A stretch of 61,462 bases of DNA from Negativicoccus succinicivorans (lineage in GTDB: Bacteria; Bacillota; Negativicutes; Veillonellales; Negativicoccaceae): assembly GCF_018373335.1 (NCBI RefSeq), contig NZ_JAHAHH010000001.1, forward strand, positions 1 through 61,462, written 5' to 3'. A model generated the notes under the pieces. The model worked only from the letters and a program-made list of their open reading frames with translations. It was not told the DNA's origin and ran no database searches. Below, one piece after another: positions 49,670 to 60,595 of this stretch (within the stretch, counting starts at the first letter, position 1; every line of letters begins with the position of its first letter). Made by a program: the position numbers and the translations under genes.

Positions 49670-49686
49670 AAATAAATACGCAATAG

Positions 49687-49711
49687 AAAAAGCCCCCGCG
49701 GGGGCTTTTTT
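49687..49711 (+). terminator. Intrinsic terminator after gyrA
   Basis: AAAAAGCCCC-CGC-GGGGCTTTTTT. Confidence 0.85.
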
Positions 49712-51642: not shown

Positions 51643-51785
51643 TCCACTCGTTTTCGGACGGCGACGGTCGTACCGACAGAGACGTAATCGCGCATGCTTG
51701 CGTGCAAGAAGGCATCTCGCCGATTGTCATTGCAAAAGAGCAGAGAAACGAATATATTCTCGCCCTATTGGTTTCGAGCGATTAA
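51642..51785 (+). pseudogene. Fic-domain gene fragment
   Basis: Frame from 51642 reads IHSFSDGDGRTDRDVIAHACVQEGISPIVIAKEQRNEYILAL, a decayed HPFxDGNGRxxR motif with no start. Confidence 0.7.
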
Positions 51786-52886
51786 CAGGTCTTCCGTTTT
51801 GGCAAATGTGCTCGCCACCAAGTCGCTTGCGCCGATTTTCGCCAGCCAAGGCGTGGCAAGCTCTGTTTCTAAATATCCGGCCAATATGCGTAGGCCTTTA
51901 TGTTCCATAACGGTTTTTATTTGAAATAATTGCTCATTAGAAAAAAGGTCGGGACGTCGGTTAATGAAAAACGCAAGATCGTAAAAATCGCGGATGTTTT
52001 CTTCTTTCGTGAACGCGGCCAGCTTCATGTCGATCAATACCTTCCAATCGTATACCGATACACTTTCTGTCTTGTTTATTTTGAAAACATCGGCCTCGAG
52101 CAATTTTTTATTCCGGTCGGAAATTTCCAATATTAACGGACAATCTCCGGCGTCCTTTTGACCTCCGTAATCAATGATGATTTTGACGACAGAATCCGCG
52201 CTTTCAAGAACGTGATATTTCCAGCGGTTTTCTTTTGCGATTTTTTGGAGAACTTTTTCTACCTTTGCCAAAGAGCCTTTGGTATCCAGCTCCAGCGCTT
52301 CTGAAAATCGATCCAGCTGATGAAAAAGCATGAGCGCGGCGCCGCCTTTTACAACATATTCATCTCCCAAATACGATAAGATTTTTTTCATAACGCGAAT
52401 TCGCTCTTGTTGCGAATGCGTTACATTGGTTACGTTGCGCGGCGCGTTTCGGTCATTCAAATATTTTTCCGGGTACTCTCGTCGCATGAACCAAGAAATG
52501 TCTTTTACGCTTTGAATTTGCTCAAGATACGAATATAATTTTTGATCTTCTTCCTGCGTCGACAAAAAATCTTTTCGGCAATCCAGCATTTGCATGGCGA
52601 GTTCCTTGGGTTGCGTCAAAATAAAATCGGCGATCGCTCTGGGAAAATCCGCGATAAAAACCTCTTTTGATCGATCATAAGGAATCATTCGTTTTGAAAT
52701 ACCGTTTTTCCCGAACAAATAAGAATTCGCATACAGAGGAATTGTCGGCTCTTTTTCCGTATATAACCAATAGTTAAGCGGGTGCCAATCGGCGGTGGTA
52801 ATCCCGTCCGGCGCGACAACATTTAACGCTTCCCACCCCGAGATGTATTTTTCTTCGGTCGTTGCGGGAATAATTTTCCACTTCAT
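51765..52886 (-). CDS. Fusion of an uncharacterised N-terminal domain to an AbiEii-type nucleotidyltransferase
   Basis: C-terminal half has KGGAALML...RFSEALELD and RDFYD; N-terminal half has YISGWEALN...ADWH...ADFPRAIAD; GGAGG RBS before ATG 52886. Confidence 0.78.
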   Translation of the reverse strand: MKWKIIPATTEEKYISGWEALNVVAPDGITTADWHPLNYWLYTEKEPTIPLYANSYLFGKNGISKRMIPYDRSKEVFIADFPRAIADFILTQPKELAMQMLDCRKDFLSTQEEDQKLYSYLEQIQSVKDISWFMRREYPEKYLNDRNAPRNVTNVTHSQQERIRVMKKILSYLGDEYVVKGGAALMLFHQLDRFSEALELDTKGSLAKVEKVLQKIAKENRWKYHVLESADSVVKIIIDYGGQKDAGDCPLILEISDRNKKLLEADVFKINKTESVSVYDWKVLIDMKLAAFTKEENIRDFYDLAFFINRRPDLFSNEQLFQIKTVMEHKGLRILAGYLETELATPWLAKIGASDLVASTFAKTEDLLIARNQ

Positions 52887-53141
52887 AGTTACCTCCGGTA
52901 GAAAAGTTTCTCCTGAACCTATTCTCCCATTCATTAAAAAAATCCACAACTTTTAGTGATGCGCGCAATCGAATTGTTTTCAAAGGTTTTTGTGAGTGTA
53001 AACGACCCCCCAATTTTTAATCGGATTGACCTTGTTTTTTACAGGCTGGTCAAATCAGCGTGAACGCACTACCATGAAAGCGACAGATACTTTTTAGCGC
53101 GTCAGCATAAACTCACCGATTATGATGGCGGAAGGAGCAAT

Positions 53142-53864
53142 ATGGAAAATATTATTTTGGATCGTCTGCGCGGCGAAAAGAATTGCGGCATTTCCGGCGG
53201 ATTGTACGAATACACTAAAGTTTGGCTGACATATACTTCCAATGCGATTGAGGGCAGCACGGTCAGCTTGGAGGATACCCACGCCATTTTAACCACCGGA
53301 CGATTGAACGGCAAAGACTATCCGAAACTGAATGACGCGATTCAAACGCGTAATCATGGCATGGCATTCGATTACATGCTGGATATCGCGGAGCAAACGC
53401 TCACGGAAGAACAAGTAAAGCATTTTCATTACCTGCTGTTTTGGGGAACAGAGGAAGCGATGAAAACTTGGTTCGCCGTCGGCGATTATAAGAAAGAAGC
53501 CAATCGGATCGGCCTGCTGACCGAAACCTCATCGCCGGAAGAAACGCCGGAGCATATGAAAACATGGTTGCATGACTGTCAGGGTGAAAAAAATCCGCAA
53601 CTGAAAGAAATCGCTCTGGCGCATTACGGTTTTGAAACCATTCATCCGTTTCAAGACGGCAACGGTCGTGTCGGTCGCTTGATCATGTTCAAAGAGTGTT
53701 TGCATCACAACATTTCGCTGCTTATTATTACCCCGGAAATAAAGCCGTGGTATATGACCGCGCTCAATGAGTGCCGGCAAGGCTTGCAGAATCGTTTGTT
53801 TGAAACCTGCGGCAAAGCGCAAGATGACTATCAATTAATTTGCGCGAAATTCATAAGAGAGTAG
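53142..53864 (+). CDS. Fic family protein
   Basis: Canonical HPFQDGNGRVGR; inhibitory-type motif SNAIEG. Confidence 0.92.
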   Translation: MENIILDRLRGEKNCGISGGLYEYTKVWLTYTSNAIEGSTVSLEDTHAILTTGRLNGKDYPKLNDAIQTRNHGMAFDYMLDIAEQTLTEEQVKHFHYLLFWGTEEAMKTWFAVGDYKKEANRIGLLTETSSPEETPEHMKTWLHDCQGEKNPQLKEIALAHYGFETIHPFQDGNGRVGRLIMFKECLHHNISLLIITPEIKPWYMTALNECRQGLQNRLFETCGKAQDDYQLICAKFIRE

Positions 53865-53930: not shown

Positions 53931-54194
53931 ATGTTAAAAGCATATATCAGAGAAGCCTATCCCATCCCACAAAATTTATCTGGGGAAATAAAAGAATATG
54001 TTGATCGGTTAGAAGAATTATATGTCATTCTAAACAATATGAGTGACAAAGTGAGTGACGAAGATCCCGAATACATGTCCTTACTTTGGGAATATGAAGA
54101 TAAACAGCAATGGCTGGGTATAATGGCGAAAACCAAAGAAGGCATATCGCAAGAGGATTTTGATGCTTTATATTTCAGATACTATATCAGTTAA
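53931..54194 (+). CDS. Small helical protein (group A, copy 1)
   Basis: AGGAGG RBS; paralog of 57778-58056 (AYIRE..P...EI.E.VD.LE.L...PEY...E...WL.I.AK...FRYY). Confidence 0.75.
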   Translation: MLKAYIREAYPIPQNLSGEIKEYVDRLEELYVILNNMSDKVSDEDPEYMSLLWEYEDKQQWLGIMAKTKEGISQEDFDALYFRYYIS

Positions 54195-54196
54195 AC

Positions 54197-54328
54197 GAAA
54201 CTTTCCCGATATATAACCGGCGGATAAAGAAAGAAATCACCGCAGTGGAGGCCTTTTATACATCAGGCGTTTCAAAAAACTTTTATCGCAGGGTCAGACA
54301 ATACGAACGAGAGGTGTACCGGCAATGA
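54197..54328 (+). pseudogene. 3' fragment of a serine recombinase (resolvase) HTH domain
   Basis: ETFPIYNRRIKKEITAVEAFYTSGVSKNFYRRVRQYEREVYRQ*; its stop overlaps the kinase ATG (ATGA). Confidence 0.6.
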
Positions 54329-55728
54329 ACACGTTTTTATTAATGCATAAAAATATTGAAGTTTTAGAGATACGAAAAGAACCGGATATGGATTATTTCC
54401 GAATAAATTCCATCATCAATGCGGAACATTTGCCGGTGAACATGCTGGGGAAAAATAAATGCAATACCCATGAATTGAATCAGTTTTTGAAACATAGGGT
54501 TATTCCTAAAAGTCGACCTAACATTGAGGAAATAAAGAAATATTACCGAGCAAACAGTTCGTATGAGTTGGCCTTACCGTCCTATATGGTCAGTATCGCC
54601 GACCATTATTGGCTTTGTCCGGAAGATAAAAAACAAGACTTGAATTGGGAAAAAGTAAATTTCTATGACAATGATTTTTCATCAGACTTATTATTTTTAT
54701 CATCAGATGAATCAAGCCTTGATGAAAGCGAGCGAATGAATCCAACTCCCAACACAACCAATAACGGTTCATTACCTCAAATGTGGACAAAGAAAGACAG
54801 TGATCTGTTTTTTATAAAAAACGGGCAAAGGTCTTTTTATCAACAGCCTTATAACGAAGCCGTAATTTCGGACATAATGAAGGCTATGAATATGCCCGGT
54901 GTTACGTATGACTTGTCTTATATAGCGGCGGCGGATGTATCGATATGTCCGTCATTCACAAATTCGCGAATTGAATTTATTCCGGCATGGCAGTTTGATG
55001 TTAACCAAAAACTGAACCATGAAAGTTATTACGAATATTATCTGAAAAAAATAACCGAGTGCGGTATGGATCAGGAACGGGCGCGTAAGCAGCTGGAACA
55101 AATGATTATACTTGATTTTATTTGTGTGAATGAGGATCGTCATTGGGGAAATTTTGGCGTTTTGCGAGACAGTGATACCTTGGAATATATCGGACTTGCG
55201 CCCATTTTTGATAATGGCACCAGTTTAGGATATATGAACTTATCAATACGGAATCATCAGATTTATGAACGCTCCAAATCATTCGGCAATACCCATCAAA
55301 ACGAATTAAAATTTATTCGTCATATGGACATGGATTCGTTGGACATCTGTGATAAAATACCGGAAATTTTGGACAGAAATTATAAAAAGTTGCGACACCC
55401 CGCCTTTGGGGAAGAACGCGTTGAAGAGATAGCCACGTTACTGGTAGAAAGGATTCACGACATGGGAAAAGAAAAGGAAAGCAAAAAATCGGCGATTCGT
55501 GTTGCAAAGTCCATCGAGGAAAAGGAAATGGAACCGGAGTTCGATGAAAGAGCCTTGCCGAAAGACCTGCAACAAGATATCCAAAATTGGTTAGATCATC
55601 AAGACGATGATTTAAGATGGGATGTTTATCATAATGAGCTTTACGGCACGATTAACATGTATCAACACGCGCATGTAATCAGTGAAGAAGTCGCGGATTA
55701 TTTACGAAAAAAGTATTTGGGATTTTAG
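54325..55728 (+). CDS. HipA-superfamily kinase 1 with fused C-terminal small helical domain (group B)
   Basis: SIADHYW, FIKNG, QPYNE, NEDRHWGNFG, LAPIFDNGTSL; tail LPKDLQ...ELYGTIN...ISEEVADYLRKKYLGF. Confidence 0.85.
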   Translation: MNTFLLMHKNIEVLEIRKEPDMDYFRINSIINAEHLPVNMLGKNKCNTHELNQFLKHRVIPKSRPNIEEIKKYYRANSSYELALPSYMVSIADHYWLCPEDKKQDLNWEKVNFYDNDFSSDLLFLSSDESSLDESERMNPTPNTTNNGSLPQMWTKKDSDLFFIKNGQRSFYQQPYNEAVISDIMKAMNMPGVTYDLSYIAAADVSICPSFTNSRIEFIPAWQFDVNQKLNHESYYEYYLKKITECGMDQERARKQLEQMIILDFICVNEDRHWGNFGVLRDSDTLEYIGLAPIFDNGTSLGYMNLSIRNHQIYERSKSFGNTHQNELKFIRHMDMDSLDICDKIPEILDRNYKKLRHPAFGEERVEEIATLLVERIHDMGKEKESKKSAIRVAKSIEEKEMEPEFDERALPKDLQQDIQNWLDHQDDDLRWDVYHNELYGTINMYQHAHVISEEVADYLRKKYLGF

Positions 55729-55736
55729 GAGGTAAC

Positions 55737-55949
55737 ATGGACATAAAAATTCCTAAGTATCTGCAAGATACACTGGATAAGCAAAAACGATTGGTAGCAG
55801 AATATGAAAAAACAAAAGACGCAGAATCAAGTATTGCTGTTTCTTTTGTTTGGGAAGAAGTATATGTTGATATTAATCACGCATTAACAAATGATGCGAT
55901 TACCGAAGACGAAGCACGCGCTCTGCGAAAAAAGTATTTAGGAATTTAG
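55737..55949 (+). CDS. Small helical protein (group B, copy 2)
   Basis: AGGAGG RBS; IPKYLQ...EVYVDIN...ITEDEARALRKKYLGI. Confidence 0.8.
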   Translation: MDIKIPKYLQDTLDKQKRLVAEYEKTKDAESSIAVSFVWEEVYVDINHALTNDAITEDEARALRKKYLGI

Positions 55950-55983: not shown

Positions 55984-56253
55984 ATGAACATTGAAAAAAT
56001 GCGCATTCCCAATTCGTTACAAGAACAAATCAAAAAAATAAAGTTGCTAGAAAGTGAAATAAAAAAAGGTGGTGAAAAAGGTTTGGAGGCAGAATGTATG
56101 TTAGGTTTTGAGTTAGGAAATATTCATCCAACTATCAATCGATGCTTAATGGCAGGCGAGATAACACCGGAGGAATCGCATTTTTTACACGAAAAATATT
56201 GTGTTGAATTTATAGAAGAGGTGTTACACAATTATGAAATCTATAATAATTGA
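55984..56253 (+). CDS. Small helical protein (group B, copy 3)
   Basis: AAGGAG RBS; IPNSLQ...IHPTIN...ITPEESHFLHEKY; overlaps the start of kinase 2. Confidence 0.75.
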   Translation: MNIEKMRIPNSLQEQIKKIKLLESEIKKGGEKGLEAECMLGFELGNIHPTINRCLMAGEITPEESHFLHEKYCVEFIEEVLHNYEIYNN

Positions 56254-57181
56254 TTTTACGCACTTTGAAAAAATCACTCCCCTTCGATTTGACGGAGCAA
56301 GTTATAAATATGCCGTTCAAGGAAACGATTCTCTATATATTTTGAAGTTTGAAGAATATCCCCGGCGCAAAGCTTCCGTTTCACACACGCATCATCACAC
56401 ATCGGAATATATCGGATCCCATATTTATGAGTCGATCGGATTACCGACACAAGAAACTTTTTTAGTAAAACGAGATGACAGAATCGCCGTTGCCTGCAAA
56501 CATTTTTGCCAAGGAAATACGCGGTTGTATTCGTTCAAAGAATTGGCCACCGATTTTATGCATCCGTCCATTTCAAAAAACAGCGCATCACAAGCGATTA
56601 CCACTCTTGAGGGCACGCTGGAACTCATTTCAAAGCAAACTGTTTTTCAACCTGAGGTCTTAACCGACAGATATTGGGACATGTTTGTTGTGGATGCGTT
56701 TATTGCTAATTCGGATCGTCATAACGGGAACTGGGGATATTTGGTCGACAACCATACATTTGAAGTTTCTTTAGCGCCGATATATGATTGCGGATCCTCT
56801 CTTTACCCGCTTTTAACAAATGAAGAGATGCGGATCTGCTTACAAAACGAAAGCATGATGAAACAACTTTCCGCCAATGAACCGTCTTCTACCGTTCGTT
56901 ATAAGGGAGCTAAAATTAACTTTTTGGATTTTTGTCGGAATTACGAAAATCCTGACTTTCTCGCTGCCGTAAAACGAATCGTGCCGCGAATTGATATGGA
57001 TGCTATCAAAGCGATTATCACCCATACTCCCGTCATTACAGAGATCAGACAAGAATTTCTGATTCATTTATTGACATTGCGAAAGGAACTGCTTTTAGAG
57101 CCGGCCTTAAAGCGCGCCATGAAAGCGGAAAAGATTTCGTTTAATGAATCCGAGTCGATCGACAAAGGTTTGGAACGCTGA
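56234..57181 (+). CDS. CtkA/HipA-like kinase 2
   Basis: YILKF, SEYIGSHIY, VACKHF, WDMFVVDAFIANSDRHNGNWG, LAPIYDCGSSL. Confidence 0.87.
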   Translation: MKSIIIDFTHFEKITPLRFDGASYKYAVQGNDSLYILKFEEYPRRKASVSHTHHHTSEYIGSHIYESIGLPTQETFLVKRDDRIAVACKHFCQGNTRLYSFKELATDFMHPSISKNSASQAITTLEGTLELISKQTVFQPEVLTDRYWDMFVVDAFIANSDRHNGNWGYLVDNHTFEVSLAPIYDCGSSLYPLLTNEEMRICLQNESMMKQLSANEPSSTVRYKGAKINFLDFCRNYENPDFLAAVKRIVPRIDMDAIKAIITHTPVITEIRQEFLIHLLTLRKELLLEPALKRAMKAEKISFNESESIDKGLER

Positions 57182-57777: not shown

Positions 57778-58056
57778 ATGTTTCGAGCCTATATTCGAGA
57801 AGATATTGTTTTACCCGAACGGAAATCAAAAGAAATTCAAGAACTGGTGGATACGCTGGAACGCTTGCATATCGAATTGCAATCCATGGATCCGCGCGCG
57901 CCGGAATACACAAGAAAGATAGAAGAGTTTGAAGATGCCAATGAATGGCTGGATATCGCCGCAAAGCTCGACAATAAAGTCGATCGCCAAGCGTATGCCC
58001 GATATTGTTTCCGTTACTATGTGGGGGTTGTGGAAGATGACGATCAAGATGCATGA
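57778..58056 (+). CDS. Small helical protein (group A, copy 2)
   Basis: AAGGAGG RBS; paralog of 53931-54194; overlaps the start of kinase 3. Confidence 0.75.
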   Translation: MFRAYIREDIVLPERKSKEIQELVDTLERLHIELQSMDPRAPEYTRKIEEFEDANEWLDIAAKLDNKVDRQAYARYCFRYYVGVVEDDDQDA

Positions 58057-60431: not shown

Positions 60432-60595
60432 AAAGATGCAGGAGCACCATAAAACCAACAAAAGGAAATGAAAAGAGATGGCGGCTACCATCCCTTTTCT
60501 CTTGCTTATTTATTTCGCCTTTCTAGCAGCCAGTGCAGTATGATTGCCAGAGAGGGCGCGAGCAAGGTCGCGCCTGCAAGAAAATCTACGGAGCA

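Follow-up and report, generated by a model that had tools for sequence, protein, structure and literature searches.

The window, by which we mean the whole 61,462-nucleotide stretch of Negativicoccus succinicivorans DNA that was analysed, contains 3' of gyrA a lower-GC toxin-antitoxin island with genes for HipA, AbiEii, Fic, a minimal nucleotidyltransferase, a zeta toxin and four further HipA-like kinases, whose reading frames lie at 54325 (K1), 56234 (K2), 58049 (K3) and 59155 (K4). The K1 reading frame (54325-55728) is 467 codons long and encodes a kinase (residues 1-404) that runs without a break into a small domain (residues 405-467) of a family that we call U; two free U-family genes, B1 and B2, lie between it and K2. 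The features of this region are as follows:

54202-54316, + strand: remnant of a serine resolvase 3'-end, 76% identical to L016:7980-8097, which carries the ribosome-binding site of K1
54325-55536, + strand: kinase part of K1, residues 1-404 (HipA_C match, E 1.6e-7)
55516-55530, + strand: the proposed internal start, GAGGAAAAGGAA (55516-55527) followed by ATG at 55528 (M402), which reads as E-E-K-E-M of the kinase tail
55537-55728, + strand: U tail of K1, residues 405-467, a three-helix domain 88.5% identical to the free gene of G003, its own start codon lost
55737-55949, + strand: B1, free U-family gene, 70 amino acids
55984-56253, + strand: B2, divergent free U-family gene, 89 amino acids, overlapping the start of K2
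56234-57181, + strand: K2, short HipG-like kinase with a HipA_C match, ending SIDKGLER before its stop codon
57187-57280, + strand: remnant of a resolvase 5'-end and, after it, the frameshifted 3' remains of a further U copy (blastn to the resolvase-U stretch of G003; repeats D7 and D11)

A B1 allele 74-76% identical to that of the window sits directly 5' of K2 in L023; against L017:6697-6906, B1 (compared over 55816-55899) is 74% identical with the differences clustered in the middle of the gene, and K2 is 95% identical, a pattern of divergence beside a near-constant kinase that would be as in polymorphic immunity alleles. The genes A1 (53931-54194) and A2 (57778-58056, overlapping the start of the short kinase K3) encode a second family of small helical proteins that are 38% identical and are also represented at L017:10953-11222; no relation of these genes to the U family was detected, they gave no usable library or Atlas match, and they may be another, unnamed antitoxin family. 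The Fic protein of the window (53142-53864, 240 amino acids) does not have the 28-residue tail ending KSIDRGLER that is found on the Fic proteins of G003 and L023 (L016:6686-7492), and this loss looks like another truncation at a module junction. The AbiEii reading frame (51765-52949, - strand) is apparently an N-terminal module joined to an AbiEii domain; in P0253 a module related to this N-terminal one is fused to U, and in G002 the AbiEii gene is internally deleted. The island is flanked, from the gyrA stop to just past K4, by a 21-nucleotide inverted repeat (49670-49690 and 60495-60515, 90% identical) that has no further copy in the assembly when up to 2 mismatches are allowed and may be there by chance, since the region holds 221 inverted pairs. 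Promoter and terminator counts between 53000 and 57400 showed no excess over chance.

The fused kinase and its junction

K1 is a long HipA-family kinase with an N-terminal subdomain and intact NEDRHWGN and APIFDNG catalytic motifs. Its structure model aligns to HipA along the whole length, N-subdomain included (TMq up to 0.57), and in sequence it appears to resemble HipF. Unfused orthologues that are 82-83% identical terminate KGKE(F/L)ER at residue 404; more distant ones, ~52% identical, have the ends NFER and GPERT. The original prediction had suggested looking for orthologues that stop near the residues KEME, and this is the point at which the closer ones end. The kinase part of the fused alleles has a pN/pS of 0.19-0.27 and is under purifying selection.

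A doubt raised with the original prediction, that the fusion might be confined to this assembly, is removed by its recurrence in other assemblies named Negativicoccus succinicivorans. The sequence cluster of the fusion, whose members are labelled with this species name by their sources, numbers 35, and the 15 that are listed comprise 11 full-length fusions of 463-469 amino acids, a 326-amino acid fragment with the tail, a free 64-amino acid U protein and two N-terminal fragments. The fusion is intact in G002, L022 and L023, and one contig from run X1, which is similar to L023 and possibly not independent of it, spans 54202-55597, across the junction (the sequencing runs were covered as contigs, amounting to at most 12% of words). 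The single RNA run compared had no coverage of the kinase part of K1. An assembly artefact is ruled out by the cluster, these three copies and the X1 contig. No second kinase-U fusion was present among 28 longer U proteins or 149 family representatives, and the K1-U fusion was seen in this one sequence cluster only.

Free U copies start MELDER or MEFDER (M-E-(L/F)-D-E), and their methionine aligns to P404 and the following glutamate to E405 (55537), so the U homology begins at E405. The fused junction reads KE(L/M)E-P-EFDE, both the kinase stop codon and the U start codon having been lost, and the form (L/M)EP(E/G)FDE is common to all 12 listed fused proteins, which indicates a single origin of the fusion. 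The arrangement without K1 can be seen elsewhere. In G003 a serine resolvase gene, with a strong ribosome-binding site within its 3' end, runs straight into a free U gene of 63 codons; L023 has the same resolvase end, with the resolvase intact, followed by K1-U, and the window keeps the resolvase remnant only. A contig from run X4 reads resolvase-U-B1-K2 without K1 and joins 54279 to 55536. From these K1-less arrangements, K1 sits exactly between the ribosome-binding site of U and its second codon. In G003 and L023 the free U copy is followed by a nucleotidyltransferase gene. The sequence ACCGG, found at both ends of K1 in the window, was rejected as a target-site duplication because L023 lacks the 5' copy.

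The U copies also recombine with one another. A seven-site block in the centre of U is common to the fused allele of the window and the free allele of L023, and at the same block the other fused alleles match the free allele of G003. In allele P0078 (6 contigs) the tail ends with frameshifted remnant sequence and has lost a near-invariant L and R. The pN/pS of the tail is 0.10-0.55, a value based on 1-8 changes only and affected by conversion, and the reading frame is retained in every fused allele seen, across a kinase pS of 0.15-0.20, so that the tail may be under selection within the fusion; by these comparisons the frame retention argues for some constraint and the damaged tail of P0078 for tolerance.

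Of the options offered in the original prediction, the third, a chimera made by rearrangement, fits these observations best. Recombination or deletion within the toxin-antitoxin island would have joined a stand-alone HipF-like kinase to a free U gene, the break lying just ahead of the kinase stop codon on one side and at codon 2 of U on the other, and two routes fit: the kinase could have been inserted between the ribosome-binding site and the second codon of U, or an intervening resolvase could have been deleted.

The U domain and its kinase partner

The tail had been held homologous to the free "group B" genes downstream, and this relationship is beyond chance, B1 ending LRKKYLGI and the tail LRKKYLGF, but B2 is more distant and has another ending. 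The published hipRG module, a bioinformatic prediction, consists of a putative antitoxin HipR and a kinase HipG (Gerdes et al. 2021, PMC8262856). In a motif comparison made by eye with 5 hipRG, 14 hipRF and 5 hipMP rows of Table S1 of that work, all five hipRG antitoxins end in the U motif and the 14 hipRF antitoxins are without it. The L119 proteins were matched by eye to row 1082 of the same table (NLK37781.1/NLK37782.1), which made it possible to compute how close the tail is to HipR (39% identity over 59 amino acids) and K2 to HipG (32% over 314 amino acids, E 1e-56). An independent profile, built from 33 clostridial HipR C-domains only, gave 51.3 bits to the tail, 30.1 to B1 and 17.8 to B2 (E 1.6e-4), and the best other match among 18,039 genome frames scored 8.5 bits; the pairwise identity of the tail and B1 is modest (47% over 30 amino acids). 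By similarity, then, the U tail is a homologue of the HipR C-terminal domain from published hipRG modules.

A U profile search gave 502 clusters at 50% identity. Most of the proteins examined (98 of 149) are no longer than 100 amino acids; among the fusion partners that can be recognised, a Cro/C1 HTH is the most frequent. There is no curated family for U in Pfam, PADLOC, NCBIfam or PHROGs: Pfam had none for the domain in 148 of 149 representatives scanned (a repeat-like false match in P0222 being left out), PADLOC gave no match in 21 further proteins, the ESM Atlas returned unnamed clusters under 0.9 only, and the viral contigs held no confirmed relative. The free U of G003 is modelled as three helices (pLDDT 98); fold searches with this model gave no clear match, the best being to ribosomal chains (Z 7.1), which does not imply a new fold. 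We note that metallophosphoesterases and a Fic protein (P0271, P0290, P0218, P0278) also carry U as their C-terminal domain, with a tandem pair in P0271; a phosphatase-U fusion beside kinase modules might be functional.

Gene order links U with short kinases. U lies directly upstream of the kinase in all 78 close HipG loci that have at least 250 nucleotides of room (among the best 80 of 577 stretches) and is fused to an HTH in 77 of these; three distant short kinases (L065-L067) are without it. Starting from the U side, a short kinase is directly downstream in 16 of 22 U loci of Veillonellales other than Negativicoccus (222 genomes), in 3 of 4 loci of a 401-genome sample of the phylum and on 2 of 3 Campylobacter plasmids, and at such loci the HTH is often absent from U. 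Around long kinases of the K1 type, no U was found within ~1.4 kb at 21 and at 12 loci (5 shared, thus 28 distinct; several flanks are short), which does not point to U as the cognate antitoxin family of K1. All these counts come from related, non-independent genomes and are patterns, not statistics. Position upstream of a HipG kinase holds for the family at large and for B2, and the fused tail is two genes upstream of K2. From this layout K2, ~500 bp downstream of the fusion, is the nearest candidate partner of the U-family genes.

A model of the L026 kinase with its cognate HTH-less U gave an ipSAE of 0.87 against 0.64 for the best of three controls, with a contact agreement of at least 86% and a partner pLDDT of at least 88; 116 of 157 solved pairs come up to this mark, as do 2 of 215 mismatched ones, rates that are only rough with self-made alignments. 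In this model helix 2 of U lies on the FDRH catalytic loop of the kinase, and the fused tail retains the helix-2 residues D44, E49, Y51, G52 and N55. Together, gene order and modelling point to a short HipG kinase, not a long kinase, as the usual partner of U. The functional link between U and kinases that the fusion had been taken to support is thus real for short HipG-type kinases such as K2 but does not extend to the long kinase K1, and since U is tied to HipG and not to long kinases, the fusion is no evidence for a K1-U toxin-antitoxin pair. Partners that are not cognate can be brought together by a fusion within a recombining toxin-antitoxin array, and so fusion alone does not prove partnership.

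Readings of the fused tail

We think it probable that the K1 reading frame encodes a chimeric protein, in which a HipF-like kinase is joined to an orphan HipR(G) C-domain, the tail being passive or active in trans. A single 467-amino acid product would be translated from the kinase start, with the tail hanging on a long helix and a flexible linker; the full-length model (pTM 0.82) has such a helix at residues 363-399 and a low-confidence linker at 391-410. U would be the kinase-binding domain of HipR-type antitoxins, with helix 2 most likely covering the catalytic loop in short HipG kinases, as modelled for the relative's pair; it would inhibit those kinases and would not be the natural partner of K1. 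The fused tail would then be a tolerated passenger or an in-trans antitoxin that acts on HipG-type kinases beside B1 and B2, about equally probable roles. Several observations count against this explanation: the reading frame is retained and the tail has a pN/pS below 1; three distant short kinases have no U, and the neighbourhood counts come from related genomes; the complex model is that of a relative's pair, not of the tail in the window, and one control reached 0.64; and codon 55528 is ATG or TTG, both able to initiate, in 4 of 4 alleles seen as DNA.

A fuller version of the chimera explanation is conceivable, and we hold it only tentatively. HTH-less U would be an antitoxin that plugs the HipG active site, its variable central block setting specificity, and the island would be an immunity array of orphan alleles; only an in-frame landing of the kinase, between the ribosome-binding site and the second codon of U, would have kept U expressed, and selection would have kept a kinase with a C-terminal antidote to another kinase family, refreshed by recombination.

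A self-inhibited toxin-antitoxin fusion, in which the tail folds onto the K1 active site and the kinase is switched on when the tail is displaced or cut by proteolysis, seems unlikely. The U family is predicted to lie over a HipA-family catalytic loop whose DRH is shared by K1, and the preserved frame of all fused alleles seen would suit such an arrangement, but there are long-kinase relatives with no U nearby and the 82-83% identical orthologues do without a tail. Half of the HipG surface contacted by U (16 of 32 interface residues) lies past residue 186, at which the HipG-to-K1 profile alignment ends, and so has no aligned counterpart in K1. In addition, K1 already has a HipA-like N-subdomain, which is homologous to the HipS antitoxin in the published account (PMC10627512), and the P0078 tail lost its near-invariant residues through recombination with a remnant copy.

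The original prediction also proposed a nested gene, in which initiation at 55528 yields the 66-amino acid unit separately; the unit would then be a free antitoxin. M402 and the preceding GAGGAAAAGGAA are indeed present, but the ribosome-binding site is weak, and the homologous unit does not start at this ATG: the free U genes start two codons later. The methionine is leucine in 11 of the 12 listed fused proteins that bear the tail, and the codon is TTG in all three other alleles seen as DNA (G002, L022 and L023), so the ATG is private to the window allele and no conserved start codon with a ribosome-binding site marks the domain boundary. M402 falls instead on the L/F of the kinase's own ancestral KE(L/F)ER end, and the start codon of U itself is lost. 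The internal Shine-Dalgarno pairing is -5.9 kcal/mol, compared with -8.8 and -10.8 for free U genes and -9.6 for B1 (computed against an anti-SD core sequence), and it lies within a predicted hairpin of -9.7 kcal/mol. P0071, the allele met most frequently (37 contigs), has the reading IEKKKL and, judging from its protein sequence, cannot encode the GAGG that lies 8 nucleotides upstream of codon 55528 in the window. On the other side, a site at least as strong precedes only ~5.5% of 3,848 internal ATGs, although 172 of 621 long reading frames hold one, so that the site is stronger than those of ~94% of internal ATGs in the genome, and it equals or exceeds in strength the sites of 36% of 527 proxy true starts. 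ATG and TTG can both start translation. With the site in the range of those proxy starts and TTG able to initiate, there may be low-level initiation here; a nested gene is nevertheless improbable, because its start codon and ribosome-binding site are not conserved and belong to the tail of the kinase.

Among 103 family rows, position 53 of U (in YG[S/T/D/A]IN; 55642-55656 in the window) has S 73 times, T 13 times and D 12 times, and, being on the helix modelled at the catalytic loop, is a possible phospho-acceptor or phospho-mimic. That U is a substrate, with HipG phosphorylating this S/T to switch HipR-type regulators (most clostridial U domains being HTH-fused) and the K1 tail a tethered substrate or decoy, is however very improbable, as the residue is A in 14 of 87 rows of a second alignment, the modelled L026 partner has D there with residues 48, 51, 52 and 55 nearest to the catalytic Asp, and where U lacks the HTH there is no DNA-binding output that could be switched.

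Relation to known HipA-family systems

The kinase part of K1 resembles HipF, with ~400 amino acids, an N-subdomain, intact motifs and a family consensus that matches, by eye, the 14 HipF rows compared (PMC8262856). It differs in carrying a U domain and in its surroundings, since K1 is flanked by a resolvase remnant and B1 and has no adjacent HTH-type hipR gene; a profile made from HipR(G) HTHs likewise found no HTH-type HipR beside 21 K1 relatives.

In HipBST, HipS blocks HipT at the active site and is homologous to the HipA N-subdomain (PMC10627512). U is likewise small and is predicted from the model to block the active site of a minimal HipA-family kinase, but it is a three-helix domain whereas HipS is a homologue of the HipA N-subdomain. 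HipL, a monocistronic kinase with C-terminal HipS-like and HIRAN domains, and YjjJ/HipH resemble K1-U in combining a HipA-family kinase and a possible regulatory domain in one chain (PMC8262856); they are whole families with other domains, whereas K1-U is one sequence cluster.

CtkA of Helicobacter pylori is a structural neighbour of K1, and its C-terminal tail is shared with unrelated cargo and has been proposed as a secretion signal and recombination site (PMC5536186). Tails ending GLER occur here too on unrelated island genes (K2, Fic and short kinases), with the stop codon overlapping a serine resolvase start (57158-57181 in the window; L016:7468, L017, L022, L023:2021 and L042:2633), and unfused K1 ends E(L/F)ER; in K1 itself the fusion has buried this tail inside the chain. 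The tails here differ from that of CtkA in ending (G/E)LER and overlapping the next start codon. By analogy with the CtkA and Fic tails of H. pylori described there, GLER ends could serve in recombination, as a module, or resemble a secretion-type tail; two queries found no relaxase or coupling-protein match in the assembly.

The literature searched, in which subscription journals are thinly covered, yielded neither an experimental study of hipRG or hipRF nor an account of the K1-U fusion. The fusion is a local event in one species cluster, and it says little about the regulation of K1. Its closer bearing is on hipRG, with which the locus agrees in the homology of the tail, B1 and B2 to the HipR C-domain and in the order U then short kinase. 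It departs from hipRG in that none of K1, B1 and B2 has an HTH, and in that U is present in three tandem copies, one of them on the C-terminus of another kinase family. The hipRG prediction gains from this a defined domain of 63 residues, a predicted mechanism at the active site and, in Negativicutes and Campylobacter, versions that lack the HTH, and with these three it becomes easily testable by a two-plasmid assay.
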